Counted from the first letter of the stretch, positions 24,609 through 54,296 are shown. The stretch is 64,000 nucleotides of DNA from Candidatus Thiopontia autotrophica (GCA_014384675.1 JACNFK010000020.1:3954-67953); one strand, 5' to 3'. Translations and numbers: made by a program. Notes: generated from the letters alone by a model not told the origin.

Positions 24609-24644
24609 TTGCACTCTACCGGTGAATATGTCATTCTGAAAGGG

Positions 24645-32281: not shown

Positions 32282-32283
32282 TT

Positions 32284-35177: not shown

Positions 35178-35371
35178 ACAAACCTAAACTTCGGCGAAAT
35201 CTAGGTAAAAAACCGGTAATCGTCGGTTATTTTCTCCAAAAACCACAATACACACATAGCTTATATAGTCATTTCAGCTTGATTCCACACCCTGTTTCAT
35301 GAGATGATTAGCGGCTATTGCCACCGACCTGTCAAGGTCAACAAAAGAAAAAGCTCTGCGAGGAAATCGTT

Positions 35372-37259: not shown

Positions 37260-37261
37260 CG

Positions 37262-38224: not shown

Positions 38225-38242
38225 AGAGGAATATTCAACCCA

Positions 38243-40762
38243 ATGAGTAGTGCACATTCACTTCCCATACTGAACTCTACGCAATCAGAGCCAGAATCAG
38301 AGACCAAAACTCTAAGGACTCTTCACCACTTTCACCTTGGAGACCCTAGTGTAGAACGTGAGACCAGACAGATTGGCAGTGATTATCTTCCTGCACTGCT
38401 TGGTCCATTTCGTGATGTCTCAAAGATTAGTTATGACTATCCATTGGTTCTCTTCTCCAGAGAGTCCCGCCAGAGCAGTCAATATGCACTACCTCTCTCC
38501 ACATTTCTCCAGGAGTCTGTAGCAGAATTTGCCCCCGGCGAGAATGGTGCACGAATACTTAAAGATAACCTGGGTTGGCTGGAACATGCAATTCGAGGTG
38601 AGCTGGAAGGGCATGATGGGCCACTCCAGCTCTTCCCGGCAGTAAACCGTTCTGTTGAAGCACTGTTACAGCACCTCTCTCTATCTGGTGACAACCAGAA
38701 GGCGGTCGAGAATGATCTTGAGCAACTTAAGGGTTTCTTCAGTGAAGCGGATCAACTCCTCCCATACGATCGCTATACCGCAATTCATCTAATGATTCAT
38801 CTGGTCCATGGACGCTCTGAAGAGCGCTGGGACCAGTTTGAGATTGAGCTCCAGGATTTACGCCGCCAACTCAATCAGATTCTTGATATCGAGCAGCGCA
38901 AATCAGGTGAAGCAATGGGCGCCTCTGCACTACAGAAAAGTGTTGGCAGCAATGCCAATCGCTTTAATTCCGAGGCCCTCTCTTCAGTGCTTCCCCAGAA
39001 TAGTGGCACAGTCACCATGTCTGAGGCGCGCAAGGATAGAATCACTCATGCAGCAGAGATCATAAACCAGTTCCAGCGAGATCCTGTTCAGGTACGCTTT
39101 ATCCATACTGGCGACTTCTCTGGTCCATGGGCTGATCATCCCAACCACTTTGAGACTACAGTTGATGCAGACCCTTGTCACAAGGCGACATCCATATTCG
39201 ACAGTGAGGCAAATGAGCTTGCCGAGCTCTTTACTGCATGCAGAATTGCCCGCCTGGAGATTGACAACAGTTATGATGCAACTGTTCATGACCCCTGGTT
39301 TGCCAACTTTAACTGGGAGGCTTTTTCAAAGGAGGAACTCTTACTTGTTCCAGCAACGGTTGCTTTAGAGCCGGCAAATCGATTGGCCCGTGAGGGGCTT
39401 AGCTCCTTCTCTCAGCTACTGGGCTCCGGACGACCCATTCAGATCCTGACTCGAGTCAAGGGTCATAGTAATCCTGCTGCTAGTGAAGAAGAGTCCCCAT
39501 TCCATGATTTCCGTCTGGAACTAGGGTATATAGCAACAGCACATCGTCAATGCTACGTGGCCCAAACCTCTGCTGCTCGCTATCAACATTTGATGAGCAG
39601 CTTCCTGGAGGCAACCGAGATTCCCCACACTGGAGTCCACCTGATTAATACCGGGGTTCAGATTACCAGTAATCTGCAGGAAGATGATCCTCACATGATC
39701 GATCCATCAATCCAGAAGAGCAGAAAACAGTTCCTGATGGATCCATGGATGGTGGCCAGTGCTGCCCTGGAGGGGCGTGTTCACCCCTTCTTCCGGATGA
39801 ATCCAGAACTGGGGGATACCTTTGCCGAGCGGATGAATTTTAGTGTCAATCCGCAGCCTGAAAAGGATTGGGCCATCCATCCGTTCAGCTATCAAAATGA
39901 GAATGGTGAGGTGACTCATACGGAATTCGCCTTCACCTTTGCCGACTATGCACTGCTGGTACCTAAACTCAGAAACCATTTTCGCCTTATTCCTGGTAAT
40001 TTTGAGTCCGAGGCTCTAACTCCAATTGCTGAGTATCTGCAACAATCCGAGGAAAACAGCTTCTCTCTAGTACCATTCGTCTGGACTATCAACAAGGATA
40101 ACCTGCTCCACAGAGCTGTTGTATCCCGAGAACTGGTGCTTGCGTGCAAGGATAGGCTCAACTACTGGCATACCCTGCAGGAGCTCTCTGGAGTACGTAA
40201 TCCACACGCAGACCAGGCTGTCAATGAGGCTAACCTGTTGATGGAGGCAAAACAGAACAGCATTATCAGTGAGCTTCAGCAGAGTCACGCCGAGGAGATT
40301 AGTCAACTACAGGCCGATGCAACAGCAACGGTGATGAGTAAACTGGCTAAGGTGCTGATGGGAATGAACCTCGAACAGAATATCGTTGCCGGCGCTGGAT
40401 CTACTGCAACTACTGCAACTACTACAGAGACAGAAGAGCAAGACTCCGAACCAACCGAGGAGGCTGTCGAAGAGATGGCTTCAGAGGAGGAGCCTGTTAT
40501 CGAGATCTCTGAAGACCCATGGATCGAATCCATTCTCTGCACAACATGCAATGATTGCACCAATATGAATCCACAAATGTTTGTCTACAACGATGATAAA
40601 CAGGCATACATAGCTGACCCCAATGCTGGAACCTATGCGGAACTGGTTGAAGCGGCAGAAATATGTCCATCCCGCTGTATCCACCCTGGAATGCCACTCA
40701 ATAGCAGTGAACCTGATCTGGATGAGCTGATCGAGAGAGCAGCCCCATTCAACCAGGGATAG
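38243..40762 (+). CDS. 839-aa protein of unknown function with a C-terminal single-[4Fe-4S] ferredoxin domain
   Basis: AAGAGGAA RBS. I recognise no motifs in the first ~750 aa (no Rossmann or P-loop, and no citrate synthase, aconitase or IDH signatures). The last ~80 aa, CTTCNDCTNMNPQMFVYNDDKQAYIADPNAGTYAELVEAAEICPSRCIHPG, fit the Pyrococcus-type single-cluster ferredoxin pattern CxxCxxC...(x~30)...CP. A Thr/Glu-rich acidic linker precedes it. Confidence 0.7.
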   Translation: MSSAHSLPILNSTQSEPESETKTLRTLHHFHLGDPSVERETRQIGSDYLPALLGPFRDVSKISYDYPLVLFSRESRQSSQYALPLSTFLQESVAEFAPGENGARILKDNLGWLEHAIRGELEGHDGPLQLFPAVNRSVEALLQHLSLSGDNQKAVENDLEQLKGFFSEADQLLPYDRYTAIHLMIHLVHGRSEERWDQFEIELQDLRRQLNQILDIEQRKSGEAMGASALQKSVGSNANRFNSEALSSVLPQNSGTVTMSEARKDRITHAAEIINQFQRDPVQVRFIHTGDFSGPWADHPNHFETTVDADPCHKATSIFDSEANELAELFTACRIARLEIDNSYDATVHDPWFANFNWEAFSKEELLLVPATVALEPANRLAREGLSSFSQLLGSGRPIQILTRVKGHSNPAASEEESPFHDFRLELGYIATAHRQCYVAQTSAARYQHLMSSFLEATEIPHTGVHLINTGVQITSNLQEDDPHMIDPSIQKSRKQFLMDPWMVASAALEGRVHPFFRMNPELGDTFAERMNFSVNPQPEKDWAIHPFSYQNENGEVTHTEFAFTFADYALLVPKLRNHFRLIPGNFESEALTPIAEYLQQSEENSFSLVPFVWTINKDNLLHRAVVSRELVLACKDRLNYWHTLQELSGVRNPHADQAVNEANLLMEAKQNSIISELQQSHAEEISQLQADATATVMSKLAKVLMGMNLEQNIVAGAGSTATTATTTETEEQDSEPTEEAVEEMASEEEPVIEISEDPWIESILCTTCNDCTNMNPQMFVYNDDKQAYIADPNAGTYAELVEAAEICPSRCIHPGMPLNSSEPDLDELIERAAPFNQG

Positions 40763-40770
40763 GAGCAGCC

Positions 40771-41634
40771 TTGAACAGTCTGCTAGCATCTCCAGCTATA
40801 ATGATGGGAATAGGACTCTTTTTCGGGGTAATTCTTGCTGTTGCCTATCGTCTGCTAAAGGTAGACGAAGACCCCAGAATTGATGAGACAGAAGAGATGC
40901 TACCTGGCACCAACTGTGGTGCATGTGGTGTTCCTGGATGCCGTGCTTTTGCTGAAGAACTCATCAAAGGCAGTGTGGAACCAAGCCAATGTACGGTTGC
41001 CCCCAAGGATGAGATCGAGGAAATTGCCGAATTCCTGGGAGTTGATGCTGGCTCACAGATAAAACGGGTTGCCCGTCTTCATTGTGCTGGTGGCAAAGAG
41101 GAGGCCTGGCAGATTGCAGAGTACCAGGGATTTGATAGCTGCCGCGCTGCTGCTGTAGTCTCTGGAGGTGGCAAAGGGTGTTCATGGGGATGTCTGGGAC
41201 TGGCAGACTGCGAGATCGCATGTGATTTTGATGCCATTCACATGAATGCCAATGGTCTCCCGGTTGTGGATCTGGATAAATGTACAGCCTGTGAGGATTG
41301 TGTAGTTGCATGTCCAAAGGATCTTTTCAAGATTCACCCGATTAATGAACACCTCCTGGTTCAATGCAGTGCCCCACTGGAGGGGGATGCGATTCTCTCA
41401 CTATGTGGTACCGCCTGTGATGGCTGTGGACGTTGTGCAACAGATGCCAATCCTGGCTTGATAGAGATGGTGGATGGCCTGCCTGTTGTAGATTACAGTA
41501 GCATGGTGGAAGAGACACCAGAGGCCACCTATCGCTGCCCCACTGAAGCCATTATATGGATAGATGGTGGACAGTTTGACCGCAAAAACAGAAACCTGAC
41601 CGAGGGTCAAAAACGTTATGCCCAGCTTCGCTGA
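40771..41634 (+). CDS. rnfB: Rnf electron-transport complex subunit B
   Basis: N-terminal TM helix, RnfB-specific LPGTNCGACGVPGCRAFAEELI (E. coli RsxB [21 protein letters not shown]), then two ferredoxin-type CxxCxxCxxxCP domains. TTG start with AGGAG 6 nt upstream; an ATG at 40801 is possible. Confidence 0.85.
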   Translation: MNSLLASPAIMMGIGLFFGVILAVAYRLLKVDEDPRIDETEEMLPGTNCGACGVPGCRAFAEELIKGSVEPSQCTVAPKDEIEEIAEFLGVDAGSQIKRVARLHCAGGKEEAWQIAEYQGFDSCRAAAVVSGGGKGCSWGCLGLADCEIACDFDAIHMNANGLPVVDLDKCTACEDCVVACPKDLFKIHPINEHLLVQCSAPLEGDAILSLCGTACDGCGRCATDANPGLIEMVDGLPVVDYSSMVEETPEATYRCPTEAIIWIDGGQFDRKNRNLTEGQKRYAQLR

Positions 41635-44600
41635 AATCGCAAACCGCATCTACCGCAAAGTCATCGGAGCAGATAACACTCTGCAAACAGACAGTCACGG
41701 TATTACCACAACGCTAAATGGTAGTGTTGCGGTAGCTACAGTTGAGAGCATTCTATCGGAGGCTGCCGCATGTGGTGAGGCCTTCCCTCCTGAGAAAGGT
41801 TCCATTGCATGGCGTAACGAACAGCAGCGTCAACAGGTTAATCTTTTTGGAAAGCCACTCCTTAACATAGAGAGCGGAAGTGCTCGTGGTGCACTATCTG
41901 CGGCCATGGGGCTTGCGATGGCTGGCAAACGGGCCTCCTGCAGTCTATGGTCAAGTGACCTTGCCAATGCACAGGATCTTGTCAGACGTGCAGTTGGTCA
42001 CCACTTGCCACTGGTTATCCATGCCACCAGCAAGGCACTTCCCCTGAATGGCGAAAGCCATGAAGATAGTGATGAAGGTATTCATCAACTCAGAGATAGT
42101 GGAGCATTTATTCTCTATGCACAGAATGTACAAGAGGCCATTGATTTCACCCTGATTGCCAGAGCAGTTGCTGAGAAGGCACTTGTTCCAGGTATAGTAA
42201 TAATGGATGGTCACGAAACCGCGTCATCACCACAACAGATTGAACTGCCATCTCCAGAACTTATCGAAAACCTGGTTGGCAACTATGCTGATTCAATTCC
42301 GGTTGCAGAGCCAGCCCAGCAACTTGTATTTGGAGAAGAGCGCCGCCGGGTGCCAAATTGGTACAGTCTGGATAATCCAACACTACAGGGAAGCTATCGA
42401 GACCCATACAGTTTTGGGCTTGGCACCATCTCTCACACCAAGTTCTTTGGAGCACTGGTTCAGGAAATTTTGCAGGATACCTTCACCGGTTTCGCTCAAC
42501 TAACAGGTAGAAATTACAGTGCTGTCACCTACCTCGGCAAGAAGAGAGCTAAAAAGATTATTGTTTGCTATGGATCAATAACAGGTCGTTGTAATAACAT
42601 CTCCAACCAACTTAAAGAGATTGCTGTAGCTAGTATTCATCTGCTTGCACCATTTCCTGCCAAAACACTACATGAGACTCTACAGAACTGTAGTGAGGCT
42701 ATAATCCTTGATCGCAGTGAATCACTGCTTGATGAAAAGCCTCAGTTGTATAGAGAAGTTTTGCCTCTGCTCTCACATAACTGTAAGGCAAACTCCGTCA
42801 TCTATGGAGTTGGAGGACTTCCTGTTCACGACTCTGATCTGGTGGCAGCGTTTAAGGCTCCTCACCATGATGACGCTATAAGGGTTGGAGTTACCCCACT
42901 ACCCAACAACAGCAATCCAAAACAGCAGGTCCTAACTGACCTGCTGGAGAGGAATTATCCTGAACTGGGGGAACTTGGCATTACTGGAGGGAGAGAGAAC
43001 AACAGCCACCCCTCCACACCATCCAACTCACAGCATACCCCTATGGCAGTACGCCACCTGGGATCTGATCAAGATAGCGGATACCAGAACCTGTCACGAT
43101 TCTGGGATCAGACCGGAGTTCTCTACCGGGACGGGATGGAGAGTAACCAGGGTATTGATCCATTCGCTGCAGTTGGTCACATTCCTCCGCTAACCTCAAC
43201 ATTTATCACTACTGGCTGCAACACTCTGCCTCTTCTCAATCCGGAGCAGTGCACAGGATGTGGCAAGTGTTGGAGTAACTGTCCTGACAGTGCAATTGTA
43301 GCTGTCTCCCTCTCTCCCACCCAACTTCTGGAGGCAGGTATAAAGATGGGAGGAGCAGATGCACTGCGCCCCCACCTATCCAAACTCGCCAAACAGATGA
43401 GCCTCACCATCAACAGCGGTGAAGCTAAAGAGCTTTTAGAAAAAAGCTGGGATGAGTTAATGACACACTCCCCCCTCCCGGATGAACGCAGAACCAGTGC
43501 GGAAGATGCCATATCACAGCTTGCATCCAACATTGGTGAGCTCCCTCTCATCCATACAGAACCTCTTTTCCACCACCCGGAACGGCTAAAAGCACAATCC
43601 GGGGAGCTGCTATCAATTGTAGTCAACCCTGACAGCTGCAAGGGATGTGGAATCTGTGCCGAACTTTGTAAAACAGAATCAGATACGCCTGCACTCACTA
43701 TGCAGGAACAGAGTGATGAAGAGCTGGACCACGCCTATAAGAGCTGGAGAGTATGGGAGCAACTTCCAGACAGTAGCTCAACAACCATTATTGATTATGG
43801 TGCTCGTCCGGAAATCAGCACACTCAATGCAACCATGCTCTCTCGCCATGCATCTATGGCAATGGCTGGTGGTGACTCTGCAGAACCAGGTTCTGGTGAG
43901 AAAATTGCTATCAGACAACTGTTGGGGATAACCGAATATCATCAACAGCCAATGGTACACAGACTTCTGGAGAATATTGATGAGACTCATCAAAAGCTAC
44001 TCTCCGGAATCCGGGAAAAACTGGCAGTAGCCTCTCATGCCGATGATCTCTCCTCGCTGGCAGAAGGTCTTGAGAGCGTATCCAGCAGGCAAATTGATCT
44101 GAGTGCATTGGCAGAAAAGACTGCCAATATTGAAAGTGATGGTGTAAATGCGGAAGAGCTGAAAGAGTGGATAAATCTGGCTGAGAGAATCCGCACAGAG
44201 AGAGAAAGGATTGCAAGCGGAGAACACTCTCTGGGACGCTCCCGCTATAGCATGGTATTTGCTCCTGGAACTGCAGCAGCCTGGGCGGGAACCTTTCCAT
44301 CCAACCCATTCCAGGTCCCTGTAGTTATTGGATCTGCAGGAGAGGTCGGTGCCCTTGCATCCGGCCTGATAGAGGGTCAACTGGAACAGGCCACAGAGAT
44401 TCATCGCATTTTGCGCAAAGCAAAACTACTACTGAAGAATGGCTCTCTTGCAGAACGCAAGGCCACAGAACAGCTTGTCTGGGGGGATTTAAGCAGAGAT
44501 GAACTACAGCAATCGCCTCCTCTATTGCTAATTGGCAATGACACCACGCTGGGTGCAGAATCTGCAGGGGAACTTATCTGGTTACTTAACAGCAGACTCC

Positions 44601-45394
44601 CCATAAAGGTTATTGTGCTGGCAGAAATGGATCTTGGGTTTAGTGACACCCACTCCGATGCCCGCTCGGAGCTTGCTCTGACTGCCCTCTCCCAACGCAA
44701 TGCTTACGTTGCACAGAGCTCAATCGCCGCCCCTGACCATCTAAATAGAGTGGTACGTGAATCACTGCGTCATTCTGGACCTGCCCTGCTAAGAATTTAT
44801 GTGCCCAGCCCACAACGCCATGGATTTAATCCCGAGGCGACAATCAGACAGGCTGAATTGGCCCTCAACGGACATGCCACTCCTCTATTTAGCTACAACC
44901 CGACTGCTGACGGAGTCTTTGGAACACGCATTAGCCTGGAAGGAAATCCAACCGAGAGCAGATCAATTGCAGAGTGGGCAATCAGCGAAGAACGTTTCTC
45001 GGGACAGTTCACCAGCCTCTCCAATGGACAGAAGAGCAAAGCTGTAGAGCTTGAGGAGTGGCTCAAGCTTGATACCAGGGCCCAGAACAACAAGATTCCT
45101 GTTTTCGAAGAACATGCAATCAATCCCGGTTTTGCCAGTCGTCTGGGGCAACTGCTTGAGCAGTGGCAGATGCTCCAGGAGCTCGCCGGAATCGTTACTC
45201 CGTTTACTGAACAGGTTAAGAGAGAGGCAGAGAGCAATATCTCTGCCGACCATCAAAGAGAGATTGATGAACTGAACAGAGAGCACCAAGAGGAGCTCCA
45301 GACACTAAGAAACCGGCTGGAGTCCGAGATTACCCAACGCATAACTGATCAACTGGTTGCACTAACTGACAGCCAGTCTGATCCAGACCAATAA
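41618..45394 (+). CDS. divergent pyruvate:ferredoxin oxidoreductase (PFOR/NifJ)-like multidomain protein, 1258 aa
   Basis: Domain I/II-like N-terminus collinear with single-chain PFOR (IESGSARGALSAAMGLAMAGKRASCSLWSS...LPLVIHATSKAL vs PFOR [26 protein letters not shown]...LPGVFHVTARAI). Central 2x[4Fe-4S] ferredoxin domain (CTGCGKCWSNCP, CKGCGICAELCK). C-terminal TPP-domain-like region with a degenerate motif (LLLIGNDTT...KVIVLAEMDLG instead of GDG...NTGGQ). I see no counterpart of PFOR domain III. 150-aa coiled-coil tail. Confidence 0.65.
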   Translation: MPSFAEIANRIYRKVIGADNTLQTDSHGITTTLNGSVAVATVESILSEAAACGEAFPPEKGSIAWRNEQQRQQVNLFGKPLLNIESGSARGALSAAMGLAMAGKRASCSLWSSDLANAQDLVRRAVGHHLPLVIHATSKALPLNGESHEDSDEGIHQLRDSGAFILYAQNVQEAIDFTLIARAVAEKALVPGIVIMDGHETASSPQQIELPSPELIENLVGNYADSIPVAEPAQQLVFGEERRRVPNWYSLDNPTLQGSYRDPYSFGLGTISHTKFFGALVQEILQDTFTGFAQLTGRNYSAVTYLGKKRAKKIIVCYGSITGRCNNISNQLKEIAVASIHLLAPFPAKTLHETLQNCSEAIILDRSESLLDEKPQLYREVLPLLSHNCKANSVIYGVGGLPVHDSDLVAAFKAPHHDDAIRVGVTPLPNNSNPKQQVLTDLLERNYPELGELGITGGRENNSHPSTPSNSQHTPMAVRHLGSDQDSGYQNLSRFWDQTGVLYRDGMESNQGIDPFAAVGHIPPLTSTFITTGCNTLPLLNPEQCTGCGKCWSNCPDSAIVAVSLSPTQLLEAGIKMGGADALRPHLSKLAKQMSLTINSGEAKELLEKSWDELMTHSPLPDERRTSAEDAISQLASNIGELPLIHTEPLFHHPERLKAQSGELLSIVVNPDSCKGCGICAELCKTESDTPALTMQEQSDEELDHAYKSWRVWEQLPDSSSTTIIDYGARPEISTLNATMLSRHASMAMAGGDSAEPGSGEKIAIRQLLGITEYHQQPMVHRLLENIDETHQKLLSGIREKLAVASHADDLSSLAEGLESVSSRQIDLSALAEKTANIESDGVNAEELKEWINLAERIRTERERIASGEHSLGRSRYSMVFAPGTAAAWAGTFPSNPFQVPVVIGSAGEVGALASGLIEGQLEQATEIHRILRKAKLLLKNGSLAERKATEQLVWGDLSRDELQQSPPLLLIGNDTTLGAESAGELIWLLNSRLPIKVIVLAEMDLGFSDTHSDARSELALTALSQRNAYVAQSSIAAPDHLNRVVRESLRHSGPALLRIYVPSPQRHGFNPEATIRQAELALNGHATPLFSYNPTADGVFGTRISLEGNPTESRSIAEWAISEERFSGQFTSLSNGQKSKAVELEEWLKLDTRAQNNKIPVFEEHAINPGFASRLGQLLEQWQMLQELAGIVTPFTEQVKREAESNISADHQREIDELNREHQEELQTLRNRLESEITQRITDQLVALTDSQSDPDQ

Positions 45395-45420
45395 ATTAGC
45401 AATTACAAGGAACGTAATTA

Positions 45421-46596
45421 ATGAACCTTCACGAATATCAATCCAAAGAGCTTTTTGAACAGGTTGGGATCCCCGTACCTGCTGGAGTAACCATCGAACG
45501 TCTTGGTGAGGTAGCGCAGGCTGCCAACGATATTGGTGGCGAGGCCTGGGTTGCCAAGGCGCAAGTCCATGCTGGTGGGCGCGGCAAGGCTGGAGGCGTA
45601 AAAATAGCAAAGAGCATTGATGAACTTTCTACCTTCAGTGATGAGATGCTGGGTAGCACCCTAACCACCCCTCAGACCCATGGTCGTGGCCTGCCTATCC
45701 AGAAGGTATTAATTGAACAGACACTGGATATCAGTAGAGAGTTATACCTTGGCGCACTGGTTGATCGCGATCGCGAACAGATTGTCTATATGGTATCTGC
45801 GGCTGGTGGAATGGATATCGAACAGGTTGCTGCCGAAACTCCCGAGAAGATACTTACAGTACATGCCCATAGTGCTGCTGGTCTGCAGCCATACCAATGC
45901 CGCCAACTGGCATTTGGGCTGGAGCTGGAGGGCAAACAGATTGGGATGTTGACCAAAATTGTTAGCGGTCTGCACCGTCTATTTACTCACAACGACTTTA
46001 GTCTGGTAGAGATTAACCCTCTTATAGTAACTGGTGATGGAGATCTTCTGGCGCTTGATGCCAAGATCAACCTGGATGATAACGCTCTCTATCGCCACCC
46101 GAAACTACAGGAACTACATGATCCGTCACAGGAAGATAGGACTGAACTCGAAGCAAGCAAACACGACCTGAACTATATAACTCTGGACGGCAATATTGGC
46201 TGCATGGTCAATGGTGCCGGTCTCGCTATGGCTACAATGGATCTGATCAAGCTCCATGGCGGAGACCCTGCAAACTTTCTTGATGTCGGTGGCGGTACAA
46301 CTGCAGAACGGGTAGCCGCTGCATTCAAGCTGATCCTCAGTGACGCCAAGGTAGAGGCCATTCTGGTAAATATCTTCGGTGGCATCGTGCGCTGTGATCT
46401 GATTGCCGAGGGAATAATCTCGGCTGTGAAGGAGGTTGGTATAGAGATCCCGGTAATTGTTCGTCTGGAGGGAACCAACGCTCCGCAAGGGATGGATCTC
46501 CTGAAAAACAGTGGACTCAACATTGATGTTGAAGAGACCCTTACAGGGGCTGCCAAGAAGGCAGTCTCTTCAACCAATAGCCAGGAGGGAGAGTAG
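45421..46596 (+). CDS. sucC: succinate--CoA ligase (ADP-forming) subunit beta
   Basis: [20 protein letters not shown]...[19 protein letters not shown] is near-collinear with E. coli SucC ([20 protein letters not shown]...[19 protein letters not shown]). Confidence 0.93.
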
Positions 46597-46598
46597 AG

Positions 46599-47474
46599 AT
46601 GAGCATTTTAATTAACAACGATACTCGTGTCATCGTCCAGGGCTTCACAGGCAAACAGGGCACATTCCACGCAGAGCAGTCAATTGCCTACGGAACAAAT
46701 ATTGTTGGAGGAGTAACCCCGGGGAAAGGTGGCCAGAGCCATCTTGACCGCCCTGTATTCAACACTGTAAAAGATGCTGTAGACGCTACCGGTGCTGATG
46801 CCAGCATGATCTATGTTCCTGCCGCCTTTGCGGCGGACGCAATCTTTGAGGCTGCTGCCGGTGGTATCAAGACGATCGTATGCATTACCGAGGGCATTCC
46901 TGTTCAGGACATGATCAAGGTAAAGGCATTCCTGAAAGACTTTCCAGACACCCGCCTTATCGGACCCAACTGTCCAGGCATCATCACCCCCGGAGCCTGC
47001 AAGATTGGAATCATGCCTGGCAATATTCACCAGGAGGGGGCAATTGGCATAGTCTCCCGTTCTGGCACCCTCACCTATGAAGCGGTCTTCCAGACCACCA
47101 ATGAGGGTCTTGGACAGAGTACCTGTATCGGTATTGGAGGAGATCCAATCCATGGCATGAATTTTATCGACTGTCTGGAGCTGTTCCAGCAGGATGAACA
47201 GACCAGGGGAATTGTACTGGTTGGTGAGATTGGTGGCAGCAAAGAGGAGGAGGCCGCAGAGTATATTCGCCAGAATGTAACAAAGCCGGTAGTAGCATAT
47301 ATTGCCGGAGTGACCGCACCTCCAGGACGCAGAATGGGTCATGCAGGTGCAATCATCTCTGGTGGCAAGGGAACAGCGGAAGACAAGATAAGCGCCCTTG
47401 AGGCAGCCGGGGTCACAGTCTCCCGCTCTCCTGCCGAGATCGGAAAACATATGGCTGCATTACTGAACAGTTAA
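46599..47474 (+). CDS. sucD: succinate--CoA ligase subunit alpha
   Basis: [24 protein letters not shown], phospho-His loop [14 protein letters not shown], and CoA-binding fold. Confidence 0.93.
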
Positions 47475-47487
47475 CCATTAATAGTTT

Positions 47488-48837
47488 ATGGGTCTCCTTT
47501 CACTTTTCAGACAGAGCTTTGCACACGGTGTACACCCTGCCCACAACAAGGGGCAGACTGCAGACCTTGCAATTCAGCGGGTACCTTTTGGTCACCGTTA
47601 TGTAATGCCGCTGGGGCAACATATAGGTGCGCCAGCCATAGCTGTTGTAAAAAAAGGTCAGAGCGTGAAACGTGGAGAGATGATTGCCAAACCGGGAGGC
47701 TTCATATCTACCGCTCTACACAGCCCAGTCACCGGCACAGTAAGTGAAATAAGCCCTCAACGCACACTGGATGGATCATTTAAACCAGCCATTGTCATCG
47801 AGGCTGATCCATTTTCCACCCAGAGGGTAGAGACCACCCCTCCCCCATCCTGGGAGACCATCTCTCTGGATGATTTTATTGAACTTGTACAGCAGGCAGG
47901 AGTAGTTGGAATGGGTGGTGCAGCATTCCCCAGCCATGTTAAATACTCGATTCCAGACGGCATCGTGATTGATGATCTGCTGATCAATGGTGCAGAGTGT
48001 GAGCCGTTCCTTACCAACGATCATCGCTTAATGGTTGAGCAGCCAGAAAAAGTTATTAACGGAACCGAAATCCTGCGCCAAAAACTTGGGGCCAAGAGAG
48101 CCAATATTGGCGTAGAGAAAAATAAGCCAGAGGCGATTGTAAATCTCCAAAAAGCTCTTGATAAAAACCCGGAACTGCCAATAACCATAACCCCTCTGGA
48201 GGTGAAGTATCCCCAGGGTGCAGAGAAGATGTTGATTCAATCTGTCTACCACAAAGAGGTTCCTGCCGGTCAACTACCGAGAGATATCGGGGTTGCTGTC
48301 AACAACAGCGGCACCGTTGTAGCGATTGCTGACCTCTTTGCAACCGGATCCCCACTTATTGAACGGGTGGTCACAGTCTCTGGCCCTGGCATTGATCAAC
48401 CAGCAAATCTTCTGGTTCCACTTGGTACTCCAGTCAGGGATGTATTGAAATTCTGTGGTGGGCTCAATGACAAAACTCGAGAGGTAATAATGGGTGGTCC
48501 CATGATGGGATTTCCTATAGCCAGTCTGGATGTTCCCATTCTAAAGGGAAGCTCAGCCATTCTTGCATTTACCGAGCAAGAGACAGCCAGACCCCATGAG
48601 TACCCATGCATTAGATGTGGGCGCTGCCTGGAGGCATGCCCATACTTTCTCAATCCATCACGGCTGGCACTGTTAAGTCGCAACAGACGTTATGAAGAGA
48701 CTATTGATTACCATGTAATGGATTGTGTTGAGTGCGGTGCATGCAGCTTTGCATGCCCATCCAATATCCCGATTGTGCAGTTGATTAGAACAGCCAAAGA
48801 CAATATGCGCCAGCACCCTGTCGAGGAGGCAGCATGA
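47488..48837 (+). CDS. rnfC: Rnf complex subunit C
   Basis: N-terminal GVHPAHNKGQT...PLGQHIGAPA, Rossmann-like GMGGAAFP, and two C-terminal [4Fe-4S] motifs (CIRCGRCLEACP, CVECGACSFACP). Confidence 0.9.
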   Translation: MGLLSLFRQSFAHGVHPAHNKGQTADLAIQRVPFGHRYVMPLGQHIGAPAIAVVKKGQSVKRGEMIAKPGGFISTALHSPVTGTVSEISPQRTLDGSFKPAIVIEADPFSTQRVETTPPPSWETISLDDFIELVQQAGVVGMGGAAFPSHVKYSIPDGIVIDDLLINGAECEPFLTNDHRLMVEQPEKVINGTEILRQKLGAKRANIGVEKNKPEAIVNLQKALDKNPELPITITPLEVKYPQGAEKMLIQSVYHKEVPAGQLPRDIGVAVNNSGTVVAIADLFATGSPLIERVVTVSGPGIDQPANLLVPLGTPVRDVLKFCGGLNDKTREVIMGGPMMGFPIASLDVPILKGSSAILAFTEQETARPHEYPCIRCGRCLEACPYFLNPSRLALLSRNRRYEETIDYHVMDCVECGACSFACPSNIPIVQLIRTAKDNMRQHPVEEAA

Positions 48838-49850
48838 ACAGGGATGACCCGAATCTTCTGCTGCAGCCATCACCTCTGGTAAAACAGGGGCTGACTGTAC
48901 CGACTGCAATGCGTGACGTGTTGTTGGCACTTATGCCTGCACTATTTGCAGGGATCTGGTTCTTTGGCCTGAGTGCACTGCTGGTGGTTACTGCGACCAC
49001 TCTTGGTGCCTTGATGACAGAGTGGGTTTTTACCTCCAGAGAGAGCCGCTCCATTACGCTTGGTGATGGCAGTGCACTACTTACTGGAATATTACTGGGT
49101 ATGACCCTACCACCTGCTCTTCCGCTGTGGATGGCGTGGCTGGGAGGAGTAGTTGCTATTGGGCTCGGCAAGATAATCTGGGGAGGTCTTGGTAATAATC
49201 TATTCAACCCTGCCATTGTGGGTCGTGCCTTTCTGCTTGGAACATTTCCAATAGCAATGACGACATGGCATATCGCTGCGGGGCCTGACAGTTTCTTCAG
49301 CCTACACCCAAGCACCCTTGCCATGCCATTCATGCAGTCTCCCCCCATGGATGGCATGAGTGCCGCAACCCCACTTGGCCTGATGAAGTTTGAGCAGATT
49401 GATACCCCAATATTCTCCCTGATGTTTGGCAACACCTCTGGCTCACTTGGAGAGACCAGTGGCCTGCTACTGATGGTTGGAGGACTATACCTGCTGTTAC
49501 GTCGTGCGCTGGAGTGGAGAATACCACTGGCAATCTTTCTCTCTGTAGGGGTCTTTACCCTACTGTTACAGGCAATCGATCCAGCCCGTTTCCCAGATAT
49601 CCATTTCACCCTCTTCTCTGGCGGAATGATGCTTGGTGCAATCTACATGGCAACCGACCCTGTCACCTCACCTGTCACTACAAAAGGGGCATGGATATTT
49701 GGTTGCGGAGTTGGATTCCTGGTAGTGCTAATTCGTAACTTTGGTGGGCTACCAGAGGGGATACTATATGCCATTCTCTTTATGAATGCCGCCACCCCAC
49801 TGATTAACCGTTATACCCAACCCAGAGTCTTTGGCCGGAGCAGGAAATGA
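48834..49850 (+). CDS. rnfD: Rnf complex subunit D
   Basis: Polytopic NqrB/RnfD-family membrane protein. Overlaps the rnfC stop by 4 nt. Has the conserved FMN-attachment region. Confidence 0.88.
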   Translation: MNRDDPNLLLQPSPLVKQGLTVPTAMRDVLLALMPALFAGIWFFGLSALLVVTATTLGALMTEWVFTSRESRSITLGDGSALLTGILLGMTLPPALPLWMAWLGGVVAIGLGKIIWGGLGNNLFNPAIVGRAFLLGTFPIAMTTWHIAAGPDSFFSLHPSTLAMPFMQSPPMDGMSAATPLGLMKFEQIDTPIFSLMFGNTSGSLGETSGLLLMVGGLYLLLRRALEWRIPLAIFLSVGVFTLLLQAIDPARFPDIHFTLFSGGMMLGAIYMATDPVTSPVTTKGAWIFGCGVGFLVVLIRNFGGLPEGILYAILFMNAATPLINRYTQPRVFGRSRK

Positions 49851-50482
49851 GTGACGAACCCACCTCCACCCGCCTGATCTCCACACTGGCAATAGCTGGG
49901 CTAATTTCAGGCGTGGCAATTGTTGCCATCTATGAGGCTACTCTGCAGACAATTACCGACAATAAAGCCAGAGAGTTGAGAGAGGCTGTATTCAAGGTGT
50001 TGCCAGGGGTAAGTGAGATGAAAAAGTTTCAGCTAGATGCAGACGGCCTGCGTTTCCGTACAGAAAAAGGTAAAGATGAAAACACCCTTTACGGTGGATA
50101 TAACCAGCATGGAGAGTTCGTCGGTTATGCCCTCCCCAGTGCCGGTCCGGGGTTTCAGGACACTATCGGGATACTGTATGGATATATTCCAGAGTCACGT
50201 AAAGTAGTAGGTATGGAGATTCTGGAGAGCCGTGAGACTCCAGGGCTTGGAGACAAAATATACAAGGACCTCTCATTTGTATCCAATTTTGATAATCTTG
50301 CTATTGATCCAGAAATAGTTACCGTGAAAAAAGGGATGAAGAACGCTCCCAATGAAGTTGATGCCATTACAGGTGCAACCATCTCAGCAAAAGCTGTGGT
50401 TCGTATTATCAACGAGGGTAATGAGCGCTGGTTAAACAGGCTTCCTACCCACGGCATTCCACTACATGAGGGAGCCAGATAG
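49847..50482 (+). CDS. rnfG: Rnf complex subunit G (FMN-binding)
   Basis: N-terminal anchor and the covalent-FMN site context DAITGATISAKAV. Confidence 0.88.
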   Translation: MSDEPTSTRLISTLAIAGLISGVAIVAIYEATLQTITDNKARELREAVFKVLPGVSEMKKFQLDADGLRFRTEKGKDENTLYGGYNQHGEFVGYALPSAGPGFQDTIGILYGYIPESRKVVGMEILESRETPGLGDKIYKDLSFVSNFDNLAIDPEIVTVKKGMKNAPNEVDAITGATISAKAVVRIINEGNERWLNRLPTHGIPLHEGAR

Positions 50483-50484
50483 TC

Positions 50485-51138
50485 ATGGCAAAAACACCTG
50501 AAAGCGCGTACCAGGAGATGCTCAAGGGGATCTGGAGAGACAACCCTGTCTTTGTCCAGGTACTCGGAATGTGCCCCATGCTGGCGGTCACCAACTCTGC
50601 TGTCAATGCATTGGCGATGGGGCTAGCCACATTCTTTGTGCTGGTAGGCTCCAGCCTGCTGGTCTCACTAATGCGCAAGTGGATTCCCAAACAGGTTCGT
50701 ATCTCCAGCTACATCATCATTATCGCCACCTTTGTAACCATCATCGACTATACCCTGCTGGCAATCTTTCCCAAGATCCACAAAGAGCTAGGAGCGTTCA
50801 TCCCGCTGATTACCGCAAACTGCCTGATCCTGGGGCGCCAGGAGGCCTTCGCCTCACGCAACAGTGTCCGCTTTGCGGTAATGGATGCGGTGGGTATGGC
50901 GGGAGGATTCCTCTTCGCCCTGCTGGCACTTGGTGGGGTGCGCGAGATTCTCGGTGAGGGGGCACTGTTTGGGGTCTCACTCTTCGGACCCAACTTTGAA
51001 CCATGGATAATCATGATCCTGCCACCTGGCGGCTTCCTTACCCTGGGGCTGATTCTGCTCTTCTTCAACTGGGTCACAGAGAAGCGCAGAGAGGCACAGA
51101 TGCGTATGCTGCAACCGGCTGAGGAGAGAGCGTCATGA
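50485..51138 (+). CDS. rnfE: Rnf complex subunit E
   Basis: NqrD/RnfE family: NPVFVQVLGMCPMLAVT ... LITANCLILGR. Confidence 0.88.
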   Translation: MAKTPESAYQEMLKGIWRDNPVFVQVLGMCPMLAVTNSAVNALAMGLATFFVLVGSSLLVSLMRKWIPKQVRISSYIIIIATFVTIIDYTLLAIFPKIHKELGAFIPLITANCLILGRQEAFASRNSVRFAVMDAVGMAGGFLFALLALGGVREILGEGALFGVSLFGPNFEPWIIMILPPGGFLTLGLILLFFNWVTEKRREAQMRMLQPAEERAS

Positions 51139-51728
51139 TGACAGATGCCGCCTTCCAGCACTTCCTCTGGATTTTCGTCAGTGCTCTGTTGGTAAACAAC
51201 TTTGTGCTGGCATACTTTCTTGGGCTCTGCCCATTCCTGGGTGTCTCCGGAAAGCTCGAAACCTCATTCAGGCTTGGGCTTGCCACCACCTTTGTACTGA
51301 TTATCACCGCCATCTGTGCCTGGATACTCAACACCTACGTACTTCCCCATGCACCATACCTGCGACTGATCAGCTTTATTGTGGTGATTGCCAGCGTAGT
51401 ACAATTTATCGAGATGCTGATCAAAAAGCTCAGCCCCTCTCTATTCCGCTCACTTGGAATCTTCCTGCCGCTGATCACCACCAACTGCGCCATCCTGGGG
51501 CTTGCCATATTTGCCACCAACCGTGAATATGGGTTTGCTGAAAGCATTATCTTCGCCCTTGGTGCCGGAGGCGGATTCACCCTGGCACTGCTGCTTATGG
51601 CCGGACTTCGTGAGGAGAGTGAACTATCCGATGTTCCAACCCTGATACGTGGCACTGCATTTAATCTGATTATTGCAGGCATCCTCTCCATGGCCTTTAT
51701 GGGCTTTGCCGGACTCTTCTCGTCATGA
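51135..51728 (+). CDS. rnfA: Rnf complex subunit A
   Basis: NqrE/RnfA family: FVLAYFLGLCPFLGVS ... LPLITTNCAILG. Confidence 0.88.
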   Translation: MMTDAAFQHFLWIFVSALLVNNFVLAYFLGLCPFLGVSGKLETSFRLGLATTFVLIITAICAWILNTYVLPHAPYLRLISFIVVIASVVQFIEMLIKKLSPSLFRSLGIFLPLITTNCAILGLAIFATNREYGFAESIIFALGAGGGFTLALLLMAGLREESELSDVPTLIRGTAFNLIIAGILSMAFMGFAGLFSS

Positions 51729-51916
51729 CGGGATATATCATCTCTATCCTTGCATTGATCGCCCTGCTAGTTGGCTGGGTGCTGTTTCAGGAGTGGCTGA
51801 AGAAGAGGGATCCCCAACAGTTTGGATATAAACCAGGATGTGACGCCTGTGCCAGCAAGGATAACTGCTCTGCCCAGAAACCAGACAACACAATAAAATT
51901 TACAACACCTAAATAG
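51725..51916 (+). CDS. small membrane protein (63 aa) with Cys-rich tail, translationally coupled to rnfA
   Basis: ATGA overlap with the rnfA stop. One TM helix (IISILALIALLVGWVLF), then KPGCDACASKDNC. Confidence 0.4.
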   Translation: MTGYIISILALIALLVGWVLFQEWLKKRDPQQFGYKPGCDACASKDNCSAQKPDNTIKFTTPK

Positions 51917-51919
51917 ACT

Positions 51920-52855
51920 ATGAGTTTACAGACCAGAAAAATTGCCCTCGTTGGTGGTGGCCAGATAGGCACAGCACTAGCCCTTATGATCACCCAGAAA
52001 GATCATGCCGAAGTAGTCATTGTTGATCTGCCAGAAGCAGTCGACCCTATCAAGGGCAAGGCACTTGATATCATGGCACTACGCCCCCACGCCGGTGTTG
52101 ATGTAGAGATTACTGCAACCAGTGACTACAGCAAGATAGCGGATGCCGAGGTTGTGATCGTAACAGCAGGTATTCCACGCAAAGCTGGCATGAGTCGTAA
52201 CGACCTGCTGGAGATAAATCTTGGGGTTATCGAATCCGTCGCCAAAGAGGTTGCCACTCACGCCCCCAATGCGTTTGTTGTCCTGTCAACAAACCCTGTA
52301 GATACCATGTGTCAGGCCTTCCAGCGCCACTCTGGTTTTCCTAAAAATCGTGTAATCGGCCTCTCTGGTGCTCTGGACAGCGGACGCTTTCGTCTGTTTA
52401 TCGCCATGGAGACCGGCTTCTCTGCCAAGGATGTCTCCTGCATGGTAATGGGTGGGCATGGCCCATCAATGATCCCCCTGACCAGAACTGCAACTGTTGG
52501 CGGCATCCCCATCCAGACCCTGCTATCAGATGAGAAGATCGAGGAGATTGTCGAACGTACCCGTCACGCCGGAACCGAGATTGTTCAACTTATGGGGCAA
52601 GGCAGCGCCTACATAAGCCCTGCCTCTGCAATTATGGAGATGGTTGAGGCCTACCTGTACAACAAGAAGAGACTTATTGCATCCTCTGTGCGTTGTGATG
52701 GAGAGTATGGGATCAATGACTGCTTCATAGGTGTGCCTTGTGTGATCGGCGCTGGTGGTGTGGAAAAGATAGTAGAGATGGAGCTGACTGCTAGTGAACA
52801 GTCCCAGCTCAAAACCAACTACCAATCACTACTGGAAAACATAAAACAGATCTGA
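51920..52855 (+). CDS. mdh: malate dehydrogenase (LDH-like type)
   Basis: IALVGGGQIGTALALMI NAD-binding fold, catalytic-loop IPRKAGMSRNDLL, and MVMGGHG, typical of tetrameric LDH-like MDHs. Confidence 0.9.
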   Translation: MSLQTRKIALVGGGQIGTALALMITQKDHAEVVIVDLPEAVDPIKGKALDIMALRPHAGVDVEITATSDYSKIADAEVVIVTAGIPRKAGMSRNDLLEINLGVIESVAKEVATHAPNAFVVLSTNPVDTMCQAFQRHSGFPKNRVIGLSGALDSGRFRLFIAMETGFSAKDVSCMVMGGHGPSMIPLTRTATVGGIPIQTLLSDEKIEEIVERTRHAGTEIVQLMGQGSAYISPASAIMEMVEAYLYNKKRLIASSVRCDGEYGINDCFIGVPCVIGAGGVEKIVEMELTASEQSQLKTNYQSLLENIKQI

Positions 52856-52871
52856 ACGAAAAATTGACCTA

Positions 52872-54260
52872 TCAAATAACCTTTGAGAAGTGTTGTGCCT
52901 TTTTCTCACGTAGATAGCGGTCAAATACCATACATACGTTACGGATCAACAACCGTCCTGCAGTAGCCACGGTAACACCATCACTGTCCATGGTTAGCAG
53001 TCCATCTGTCTCCATATCCTTGAGCTCTTCAAGTTCTATCTGGAAGTAGTTACTGAAGTTGATGTTATGGCGCTCTTCGATTGCACTGTAGCCAAGACGG
53101 AAGTTGCAGATAAGTTCGGTGATTACATCTCTGCGTAGCAGATCATCGGCATCCAGCTCTACCCCACGGAAAATTGGAAGTTGGCCGGCATCTATTGCTG
53201 CATAGTAATCATCTGACTCTTTCAGGTTCTGTGAGTATGTATTACCCACCACCCCAATTGAGGTTACTCCCAGACCAATAAGATCGCAGTCACGGTGGGT
53301 AGAGTAGCCCTGGAAGTTTCTATAGAGTGTACCTTCACGTTGGGCCACAGCCAGTTCGTCATCAGGAAGTGCGAAGTGATCCATTCCAATGTATAGATAT
53401 CCTGCCTCGGATAGCTGTTGGTTGGTACGTTGAAGAATTTCCAGTTTTTGATCAGGCGTTGGAAGGTCTGCCTCATTGATACGGCGCTGTGGTTTAAATA
53501 TCTCGGGGAGATGAGCATAATTAAATACCGACAGCCTGTCTGGTCTAACCTCCAGCACCTTGTCCACTGTTTTCTGGAAGCTATCTGCAGTCTGATGTGG
53601 CAGACCATAGATAAGATCAATACTGATCGATTTGAAACCGGTATCACGAGCCGCATTCAATACCGCAAACGTCTCTTCCTCTGACTGGATGCGGTTTACT
53701 GCTTTCTGTACCACAGGATCAAAATCCTGCAGACCCAGACTCATGCGGTTGAAGCCCTGCTCTCGCAGTAGCGCAATGGTCTCTGCTGTCGCCTCACGGG
53801 GATCGATCTCGATTGAGTACTCACCTTCATCATCGTCACGCAGATTGAAGTTTGCCCGAGTTGCATCCATCAACCGGAGAATCTCTTCATGGTTGAGGAA
53901 GGTTGGGGTACCACCGCCCCAGTGCAGCTGGTCAACAACTCTTGAGCTATCAAACTGCTCACCCTGAAGCTCCAGTTCACGAATTATCCTGTCCAGATAT
54001 GGAGGTGACTTGGCTCTATCCTTGGTTGCAATCTTGTTGCAGCCACAATAGAAACATACAGTGTCGCAAAACGGTATGTGGAAATAGAGTGACAGAGGAC
54101 GCAGTGGATCTTCCTGGTTGGTACGAGATGCCGCTGCTTTATAGGATTCCCTGTCAAATCCCTCATGAAACTGAACCGCCGTTGGGTATGATGTATAACG
54201 TGGACCCGCCTTGTCATAACGGCGAATCAAATCCATATCGAATGTTAGTATCTGTTCCAT
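52872..54260 (-). CDS. hemN: oxygen-independent coproporphyrinogen III oxidase (radical SAM)
   Basis: GPRYTSYPTA, radical-SAM CDTVCFYCGCN and LHWGGGTPTFL. Collinear with E. coli HemN through the C-terminal ...FDRYLREKKAQHFSKVI. Confidence 0.93.
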   Translation of the reverse strand: MEQILTFDMDLIRRYDKAGPRYTSYPTAVQFHEGFDRESYKAAASRTNQEDPLRPLSLYFHIPFCDTVCFYCGCNKIATKDRAKSPPYLDRIIRELELQGEQFDSSRVVDQLHWGGGTPTFLNHEEILRLMDATRANFNLRDDDEGEYSIEIDPREATAETIALLREQGFNRMSLGLQDFDPVVQKAVNRIQSEEETFAVLNAARDTGFKSISIDLIYGLPHQTADSFQKTVDKVLEVRPDRLSVFNYAHLPEIFKPQRRINEADLPTPDQKLEILQRTNQQLSEAGYLYIGMDHFALPDDELAVAQREGTLYRNFQGYSTHRDCDLIGLGVTSIGVVGNTYSQNLKESDDYYAAIDAGQLPIFRGVELDADDLLRRDVITELICNFRLGYSAIEERHNINFSNYFQIELEELKDMETDGLLTMDSDGVTVATAGRLLIRNVCMVFDRYLREKKAQHFSKVI

Positions 54261-54296
54261 ATAATTATCTTCCTCCCGTCTCTACGACTGTAGCAC

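Follow-up and report, generated by a model that had tools for sequence, protein, structure and literature searches.

In a 64,000-nucleotide (nt) stretch of the Candidatus Thiopontia autotrophica genome (GCA_014384675.1, JACNFK010000020.1:3954-67953), which was analysed as a whole and is here called the window, the genes of an Rnf complex are followed directly by an open reading frame (ORF) of 63 amino acids (aa). This micro-ORF is a genuine, conserved gene under purifying selection, and its product belongs to a new small-protein family, so far without a name, that is tied to a distinct Rnf cassette. The cassette, made up of rnfB, a gene resembling that of pyruvate:ferredoxin oxidoreductase (PFOR), rnfCDGEA and the micro-ORF, is a single unit shared by several phyla. 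We give a probability of roughly 0.5 to the reading that the micro-protein may act as a membrane-tethered accessory or maturation factor of this type of Rnf, binding iron or an iron–sulfur (Fe-S) cluster. The original prediction for this region had described a small ORF that overlaps rnfA and encodes one membrane helix and a cysteine-containing tail, and each of these elements is found in place, while the interpretation given with it holds in part (coordinates here and below are positions in the window, and all genes listed lie on the + strand):

51725-51916, + strand: micro-ORF, 63 aa, whose ATG overlaps the TGA of rnfA as ATGA
51731-51808, + strand: membrane helix of the micro-protein, residues 3-28
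51839-51868, + strand: cysteine motif of the micro-protein, residues 39-48

The micro-protein, MTGYIISILALIALLVGWVLFQEWLKKRDPQQFGYKPGCDACASKDNCSAQKPDNTIKFTTPK, is identical to database entry MBC8519303.1 and has its cysteines at C39, C42 and C48, forming the motif C39-x2-C42-x5-C48. Its Kyte–Doolittle profile peaks at 2.53 over 19 residues (residues 3-21), and an AF2 model of the monomer, computed with the family alignment, consists of a single helix at residues 3-28 with a predicted local distance difference test score (pLDDT) of 82-96, followed by a disordered tail. As a KKR triplet stands directly after the helix, the positive-inside rule would place the cysteine tail of this single-pass inner-membrane protein in the cytoplasm, and the N-terminus would thus lie outside. 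Across the family the sequence follows the pattern M..hLhAhLGLhALCxxWVxFQxWLxRxDP, then 5-10 residues, GCGxC, 2-6 residues, and C. The helix carries a WVxFQxW motif (W18, Q22, W24), of which W18 and Q22 are invariant among 92 family representatives, while L14, W24, C39, C42 and C48 are conserved in at least 90% of them.

Selection acts on a well-defined part of this small protein. Between the window and four relatives, the ratio of nonsynonymous to synonymous substitution rates (dN/dS) over codons 1-49 is 0.02-0.15 at a dS of 0.5-2.3, whereas codons 50-60 evolve neutrally (dN ~ dS), from which it follows that the functional part comprises the helix, the linker and the cysteine motif. Micro-ORFs that have no overlap with rnfA mostly show a good Shine–Dalgarno sequence ahead of their start, for example ctgAGGAGGgttaccaATG in tubeworm symbionts. 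These data bear on the view that the ORF arose by chance, or is a decaying remnant of the 5′ part of rnfB, and has no function of its own. Such a view could appeal to the location of the ORF, where clostridial operons have rnfB, and to the likeness of its product to the RnfB N-terminus discussed below; but a remnant would hardly be under strong purifying selection at high synonymous divergence, recur in five or more phyla with some residues invariant, or maintain a Shine–Dalgarno sequence or the ATGA overlap typical of translational coupling. In practice, this view is refuted by the dN/dS values together with the conservation across phyla, and we regard it as scarcely credible.

How far does the family extend, and how strictly does it follow rnfA? 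A direct search recovered six close relatives at 63-84% identity and one at 49%, and the neighborhood of rnfA, micro-ORF and mdh is repeated in them wherever the contig extends that far. The original prediction had named, as a finding that would speak against it, a lack of conservation of the micro-ORF in related genomes; instead, all related genomes that share the region downstream of rnfA have kept it, and this refuting condition does not hold. A profile search among 1.84 billion proteins returned 86 representative clusters at E ≤ 1e-3, all of 48-94 aa, and a broader family profile returned 87 matches; the family proteins are all named "hypothetical protein" in the databases, and the micro-protein of the window passes no Pfam or NCBIfam threshold. 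In the 47 species-representative genomes that the family pattern retrieved, plus the earlier loci, the micro-ORF lies -26 to +70 nt from the rnfA stop codon in 57 of 58 loci. The hosts include Piscirickettsiaceae-like metagenome-assembled genomes (MAGs), Sedimenticolaceae, tubeworm symbionts, Ca. Thiodiazotropha, Ca. Thiosymbion and Chromatiaceae, as well as Planctomycetota, Phycisphaerales, Acidobacteriota and Myxococcota. The next gene differs among them: it is mdh in loci L001-L008, L012-L016, L061 and L066, a placement specific to the clade of the window, and apbE in at least 13 loci (ApbE identified by PF02424 at E ~1e-70, with a twin-arginine translocation signal). ApbE is the flavin transferase that matures RnfG and RnfD. 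A tblastn search of the window for apbE and rseC found neither.

The converse test, based on 80 metagenomic loci chosen by their RnfA (62-90% identity), gives a consistent picture. At RnfA identities of at least 79%, and with enough downstream DNA, nearly all loci carry a profile-positive micro-ORF; at lower identities the profile often fails, yet an ORF of 39-80 aa and like design abuts rnfA, as in MSTLIGIVALALLFALFGLLRPGEACNGHCDACSGTCPF. When loci were judged by architecture only (an N-terminal membrane helix, at least three cysteines, and a start between -90 and +150 nt relative to the rnfA stop), the ORF was present in 106 of 122 unique evaluable loci, and in about 114 once profile hits and visual inspection were added, as compared to a background of 2.0% of 240-nt windows in the same loci.

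Some loci depart from the common layout or add to it. A Chromatiaceae MAG (L043) has its family match about 8 kb from rnfA, the sole such case among the genome loci, which may reflect a rearrangement or an assembly artefact. Three metagenomic loci (L104, L114, L121) have a further small, conserved ORF (about 106-109 aa) behind the micro-ORF, some 100-130 nt after rnfA, which is likewise rich in cysteine and contains AYCSACDRQVE...CLEMGESCTGSMCPMCDV. In the tubeworm endosymbiont loci L022-L024, L026, L027, L029 and L036, rnfCDGEA and the micro-ORF stand without an adjacent rnfB or PFOR-like gene, so the micro-ORF tracks rnfA and not the PFOR-like gene; in the one such locus checked (L024), the upstream genes resemble, by eye from sequence, those of the anaerobic ribonucleotide reductase NrdD/NrdG.

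Comparison with characterized proteins offers four points of reference. The first is NqrM, a small membrane-bound factor needed for the intramembrane [2Fe-2S] cluster between NqrD and NqrE, which are homologues of RnfE and RnfA, respectively, and are encoded in an operon ordered nqrABCDEF-apbE-nqrM (PMC12174285). Both NqrM and the micro-protein are small, single-helix cysteine proteins encoded at the operon 3′ end of homologous pumps, with apbE as a neighbor of nqrM and, in at least 13 loci, of the micro-ORF. The order, however, is apbE then nqrM in the one system and micro-ORF then apbE in the other, and the micro-protein has three cysteines in the clade of the window, whereas Kostyrko et al. 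reportedly described, in 2016, four conserved cysteines in NqrM. Homology to NqrM was rejected, as the micro-protein finds no NqrM match in Pfam or NCBIfam even at E ≤ 10; for the 92 relatives, NqrM is not among the 25 most-matched families, with six further families lying beyond those 25.

The second is RseC/MucC (PF04246), with which we group the RseC-like part of R. capsulatus RnfF for this comparison. RseC has a conserved cytoplasmic CX2CX5C motif that holds an O2-sensitive Fe-S cluster and on which its interaction with RsxB and RsxD depends (PMC11729352); in C. ljungdahlii, rseC is the neighbor of rnfC, and autotrophy requires it (PMC9124969). The micro-protein shares the CX2CX5C spacing, but the two differ in build: RseC/MucC proteins have about 150 aa, with an N-terminal cysteine domain followed by two helices, whereas the 63-aa micro-protein has its helix first and its cysteines last. 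PF04246 scores 11.4 bits against it (cutoff 24.4), and hhalign gives a probability of 12%, albeit with an RseC alignment that is entirely enterobacterial and thus a weak test. Homology was accordingly rejected on the hhalign value, and we retain RseC as a likeness at the level of the motif.

The third is the N-terminus of RnfB itself. The micro family is collinear with the first ~60 residues of the RnfB encoded in the cassette, through a helix, a DP dipeptide, a linker and CGACGxxxC, and hhalign aligns the two over 53 columns with 77% probability (E 2e-5, score 31.9), as compared to scores of 10.6 ± 2.1 (maximum 16.3) for column shuffles and 12.9 for a reversed alignment. In the micro-protein, the fourth cysteine (at +16) and the ferredoxin domains are missing, and hmmscan with PF04060 gives no match for it; its gene occupies the place that rnfB has in clostridial rnfCDGEAB operons. 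We tentatively propose that the micro-protein is related to the RnfB N-terminus, in which case the micro-ORF would have been derived from the 5′ part of rnfB, keeping the membrane helix and the first three cysteines of the tethered domain. In Rnf, this tethered domain of RnfB gains access to the [2Fe-2S] cluster by docking where RnfA/E opens to the cytoplasm (PMC12174285). A search of the family profile against the PDB returned chance matches to Cdc37 at E ~2 and no Rnf chain.

The fourth is PF12669, the FeoB-associated cysteine-rich proteins, which have an N-terminal helix, basic residues and a cysteine-rich tail like the micro-protein and are thought to bind iron (PMC8749426). The resemblance raises the possibility of a general iron- or metal-handling protein that rides in the rnf operon and has no role specific to Rnf. 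Weak similarity does run through the family, with 22 of 92 relatives matching PF12669 at E ≤ 1 (best 1e-6) and divergent ORFs behind rnfA at E 3e-5 to 0.02, and the design of helix and cysteine-rich tail is shared. The micro-protein of the window, however, scores 14 bits (E 0.063) against a Pfam cutoff of 27, the WVxFQxW motif of its helix is specific to the micro family, and in each context examined the gene adjoins rnfA, with no feoB adjacent to it in any of those loci. A general metal-handling role is, in our judgment, quite improbable.

Considered together, the neighborhood of apbE, the RseC-type motif and the collinearity with the RnfB N-terminus point to a thiol motif, tethered to the membrane, that can reach RnfA/E from the cytoplasmic side and handle Fe or Fe-S, for which we prefer a maturation or assembly factor over a permanent subunit. 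That the micro-protein binds metal, serves in maturation and descends from rnfB is, like its topology, inferred. In the mechanism that we envisage, the helix would anchor the thiol motif at the surface of the membrane, beside RnfA and RnfE, and the cysteine tail would transiently bind iron or an Fe-S cluster and thereby support the assembly of an Fe-S center, most plausibly the intramembrane [2Fe-2S] of RnfA and RnfE. Candidate cysteines for it are C32 and C118 of RnfA and C30 and C113 of RnfE, which we take to be its ligands from published NQR and Rnf structures. This role would parallel that of NqrM for Na+-NQR, and that suspected of RseC with Rsx and Rnf.

Several observations weigh against a dedicated maturation factor. 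Besides the lack of detectable kinship with NqrM and RseC, about 8 of the 122 loci show no ORF with a helix and cysteines after rnfA. No such chain appears in the Rnf structures solved for C. tetanomorphum, A. woodii and A. vinelandii, and some bacteria assemble Rnf without RseC (PMC11729352), so a factor of the micro type is not universally required. The spacing of the cysteines differs between clades (CX2CX2C, CX2CX4C, CX2CX5C and CX3CX3C), and an in-helix cysteine found in most other family members is missing in the clade of the window, so the ligand geometry is not fixed. Moreover, a place next to rnfA would suit an assembly factor as well as a stoichiometric subunit. The original prediction had suggested a possible accessory subunit; a real, conserved cysteine gene behind rnfA is what stands of that claim, and the sequence is compatible with a subunit as with an assembly factor.

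It is thus worth asking what a permanent, stoichiometric extra subunit would look like. With a status like that of RnfH in Azotobacter Rnf1, its helix would pack on RnfA/E or RnfB, and the three cysteines, perhaps together with a ligand from a partner or within a dimer, would hold a cluster in the electron path towards RnfB or two PFOR-derived proteins described below. The strict co-linearity and translational coupling with rnfA would suit a subunit, as would the co-occurrence with a long RnfB, the PFOR-like protein and an 839-aa protein, the collinear likeness to the membrane anchor and the start of the tethered Fe-S domain of RnfB, and the precedent of lineage-specific Rnf subunits such as RnfH (PMC12174285). 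A fixed redox center, on the other hand, is at odds with the variable cysteine spacing and the neutrally evolving tail, both unusual for one, and with the presence of only three cysteines in the clade of the window; and apbE, a maturation gene, comes next in many loci, as expected of a maturation module. We consider a permanent subunit the main rival, possible but less likely, and the maturation factor remains the preferred reading.

The setting in which this factor would act is defined by the cassette, whose carriers belong to Gammaproteobacteria, Planctomycetota, Acidobacteriota and Myxococcota. Thiocystis violacea and MAGs of Planctomycetota and Myxococcota have the PFOR-like gene, rnfC-D-G-E-A and the micro-ORF in one uninterrupted row, and rnfB precedes the PFOR-like gene in those loci for which enough upstream DNA was retrieved, for example a Planctomycetota locus. 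By manual count from the map, the same arrangement is present in ~30 of ~40 genome loci with enough upstream sequence, including Sedimenticolaceae, Ca. Thiodiazotropha, Chromatiaceae, Thiohalocapsa, Phycisphaerales and Acidobacteriota. In a Ca. Thiosymbion ectosymbiont (L041), rnfE, rnfA and the micro-ORF lie apart from the rest of the cassette. An instance of the same architecture was noted in 2014 in the Solemya velum symbiont, whose rnfBCDGEA (rnf2) has a PFOR between rnfB2 and rnfC2 (PMC4287430). That report read the inserted gene as a working PFOR feeding electrons from pyruvate to Rnf and mentioned no small ORF, in contrast to our finding that the PFOR-like protein is without key cofactor ligands and our recognition of the micro-ORF. 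These data also call for a different view of what the original prediction had called a split Rnf operon. Since the order of rnfB, PFOR-like gene and rnfC is conserved across phyla, a split caused by rearrangement was rejected. sucCD alone has been inserted: the pair lies between the PFOR-like gene and rnfC only in the clade of the window and in L083, and is a lineage-specific insertion. The pattern fits a lateral spread of the whole cassette, and the array in the window would then represent a laterally shared Rnf cassette with lineage additions, namely sucCD inserted, korAB and the gene of the 839-aa protein upstream, and mdh downstream, as these genes are placed in this lineage.

In the window, the genes from korA to mdh form one gap-free array on the same strand, with intergenic distances of -17 to +26 nt; apart from the micro-ORF listed above, its members are:

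35304-37259, + strand: korA, in the upstream part of the array
37262-38224, + strand: korB, in the upstream part of the array
38243-40762, + strand: gene of the 839-aa protein, just outside the feature that begins with rnfB, and a frequent companion of the cassette
40771-41634, + strand: rnfB (PF04060 at E 1e-14, Fer4 domains; TIGR01944 78.3 bits, cutoff 68.7)
41618-45394, + strand: PFOR-like gene, 1258 aa, a degenerate PFOR homologue
45421-46596, + strand: sucC, succinyl-CoA synthetase (NF001913, 563 bits)
46599-47474, + strand: sucD, succinyl-CoA synthetase (NF004230, 474 bits)
47488-48837, + strand: rnfC
48834-49850, + strand: rnfD
49847-50482, + strand: rnfG (TIGR01947 95.9 bits, cutoff 102; PF04205 passes)
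50485-51138, + strand: rnfE
51135-51728, + strand: rnfA
51920-52855, + strand: mdh, malate dehydrogenase (NF004863, 388 bits), last gene of the array

A convergent hemN-like gene follows mdh. rnfB starts with TTG, 5 nt downstream of an AGGAG, and the stop and start codons from rnfC through rnfD, rnfG and rnfE to rnfA overlap or abut. Between the rnfB end and the rnfC start we measure 5.85 kb, in agreement with the 5.8 kb given originally, and the PFOR-like gene and sucCD do lie in between, as had been described. A consensus scan for promoters and terminators over 35000-54500 gave counts at or near the expectation from shuffled sequence and thus no sign of an operon boundary inside the array.

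Pfam and NCBIfam models bear out the gene assignments. The array encodes a full set of Rnf subunits (A, B, C, D, G and E), and within rnfCDGEA the models TIGR01945, TIGR01946, TIGR01948 and TIGR01943 score 522, 333, 234 and 242 bits, respectively, each exceeding its cutoff. RnfG and RnfD have flavinylation motifs (GATIS and SAATPL, each at residue 176), and RnfB is a long, multi-cluster variant whose N-terminal membrane helix is joined to a tethered Fe-S domain. The order B...C-D-G-E-A is unlike the enterobacterial rsxABCDGE, as originally stated, and the proteins themselves are not of the Rsx type: they miss the Rsx equivalog cutoffs (RsxA 233 against 240, RsxD 254 against 415, RsxB 80 against 203) and are 29-54% identical to E. 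coli Rsx. Identities to E. coli Rsx and to the Planctomycetota/Acidobacteriota cassette are, respectively, 54% and 74-76% for RnfA, 38% and 53-55% for RnfC, 38% and 55-58% for RnfD, 29% and 51-53% for RnfG, and 30% and 59-63% for RnfB. Against structures from C. tetanomorphum, A. woodii and A. vinelandii, in this order, RnfA scores 196, 179 and 169 bits, RnfC 350, 346 and 317 bits, and RnfB 162 (7zc6_B), 176 (9eri_B) and 55 bits (8ahx_B). By these scores, the Rnf proteins are a lineage separate from Rsx, closer to clostridial and Acetobacterium than to Azotobacter Rnf. The gene order had also been called clostridial in type. This is apt insofar as the micro-ORF occupies the clostridial place of rnfB; with rnfB in front, though, the order is the rnfBCDGEA described for Chlorobi and Bacteroidetes (PMC4014512).

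The PFOR-like protein deserves separate consideration, as it probably is not a PFOR or pyruvate synthase. It scores 131 bits with TIGR02176 against an equivalog cutoff of 911, finds its best PDB match in 6cin at E 2e-24, and matches the M. thermoacetica PFOR only over separate segments, which are domains I-II, the ferredoxin domain and the last part of domain VI. In an alignment of 18 orthologues from the cassette with E. coli YdbK, 17 of 18 retain the eight cysteines of domain V, the 2x[4Fe-4S] ferredoxin domain, and in the window protein the two CxxCxxCxxxC motifs begin at residues 545 and 674. The four cysteines of the proximal [4Fe-4S] cluster in domain VI (YdbK C819, C822, C847 and C1071), by comparison, are replaced in all 18, and the window protein has no cysteine at all past residue 684, an observation that does not depend on the alignment. 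The Glu of the CGE motif, which we take to be the catalytic one, is gone. The thiamine pyrophosphate (TPP)/Mg2+ motif GDG...N is not conserved among the orthologues (in the window, GGDG has become GNDT and the Asn is absent), and domain III is missing in the window and Planctomycetota proteins, with 18 of 212 positions aligning in the former. A functional pyruvate synthase was thus rejected as the default reading, on account of the lost cofactor ligands. An orthologue in a Phycisphaerales MAG (L040, 1170-5666) is without even the two ferredoxin motifs, so in at least one lineage the PFOR-like protein may be purely structural and without any Fe-S cluster.

The 839-aa protein appears to share this history. 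Its residues 315-713 are paralogous to residues 914-1254 of the PFOR-like protein (BLASTP E 8e-14), it has a C-terminal ferredoxin domain with a single cluster (Fer4_13 at residues 765-814), and it matches no NCBIfam model. Its gene recurs next to rnfB or rnfC, lying upstream of rnfB in L063, L068, L078, L086, L099, L101 and L108. The 1258-aa and 839-aa products would thus both be PFOR-derived, non-catalytic Fe-S or scaffold proteins of this Rnf type. Ca. Thiosymbion (L041, 12722-17842) encodes a 1706-aa PFOR with a canonical YPITPS motif and a C-terminal extension homologous to the 839-aa protein, which may resemble the ancestor of both. A more elaborate proposal, which we put forward as speculation and believe rather unlikely in its entirety, joins these proteins with the micro-protein. 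The latter, as "RnfM", would be an Rnf-specific Fe-S insertion factor made from the RnfB anchor and first cysteine triad, entering the cytoplasm-facing cavity of RnfA/RnfE to load the [2Fe-2S] cluster, within a hitherto unrecognized type of Rnf supercomplex in which the two catalytically dead PFOR-derived proteins, of 1258 and 839 aa, take the place of an enzyme as built-in electron wires or docking platforms.

What would this Rnf be used for? Its neighbors include korAB, sucCD, mdh, a pair of FrdA-like and NuoF-like genes, and phosphoenolpyruvate (PEP) carboxylase, which make the supply of ferredoxin for 2-oxoglutarate synthesis a reasonable purpose. Such a supply would require operation from NADH to ferredoxin, driven by an ion gradient. 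Directly upstream of korAB, the region 31655-35177 (+) encodes a 208-aa ORF without family match, a 545-aa FrdA/TfrA-like flavoprotein (best match TfrA, 349 bits) and a 419-aa NuoF-like protein (390 bits), the latter two both below their cutoffs; together, the three may form a soluble, NADH-linked fumarate reductase. Farther upstream, PEP carboxylase (24609-27458, +; 949 bits) and a weakly matching sulfide:quinone reductase-like protein (20002-21324, +) provide context for an anaplerotic or reductive C4 branch in a sulfur oxidizer. No citrate-cleaving enzyme was found among the annotated ORFs, in an annotation that covered part of the window. Reverse operation of Rnf, which had been argued from its embedding among ferredoxin-dependent carbon-fixation enzymes, is plausible but unproven. 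The neighboring carbon enzymes fit it; the PFOR-like gene, with its proximal-cluster cysteines and TPP motif lost, is weak evidence for ferredoxin-dependent carbon fixation, and the cassette also occurs in Planctomycetota, Acidobacteriota and Myxococcota, to our knowledge phyla not known for autotrophy. The host, too, has been described as an autotroph of the Calvin cycle: Ca. Thiopontia autotrophica is a gammaproteobacterial sulfur oxidizer of the BS-GSO2 clade from the Black Sea, for which rDsr and Calvin-cycle genes have been reported (PMC8359478).

For the Rnf family, a 2025 review of the Rnf and NQR pumps names a dedicated cluster factor, NqrM, for NQR only (PMC12174285), and opinions still differ on what RseC does for Rnf and Rsx. 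A family fixed behind rnfA, often before apbE and with the cysteine motif of RseC, is a concrete candidate for the insertion of the Rnf [2Fe-2S] cluster. The "PFOR" embedded in rnf clusters, which had served to argue that pyruvate feeds Rnf, or for carbon fixation, in sulfur-oxidizing symbionts, is without the ligands for PFOR chemistry, and its annotation should be corrected. Together, these findings define a putatively mobile Rnf cassette of 8-10 genes that is common to abundant marine sulfur oxidizers and several other phyla.

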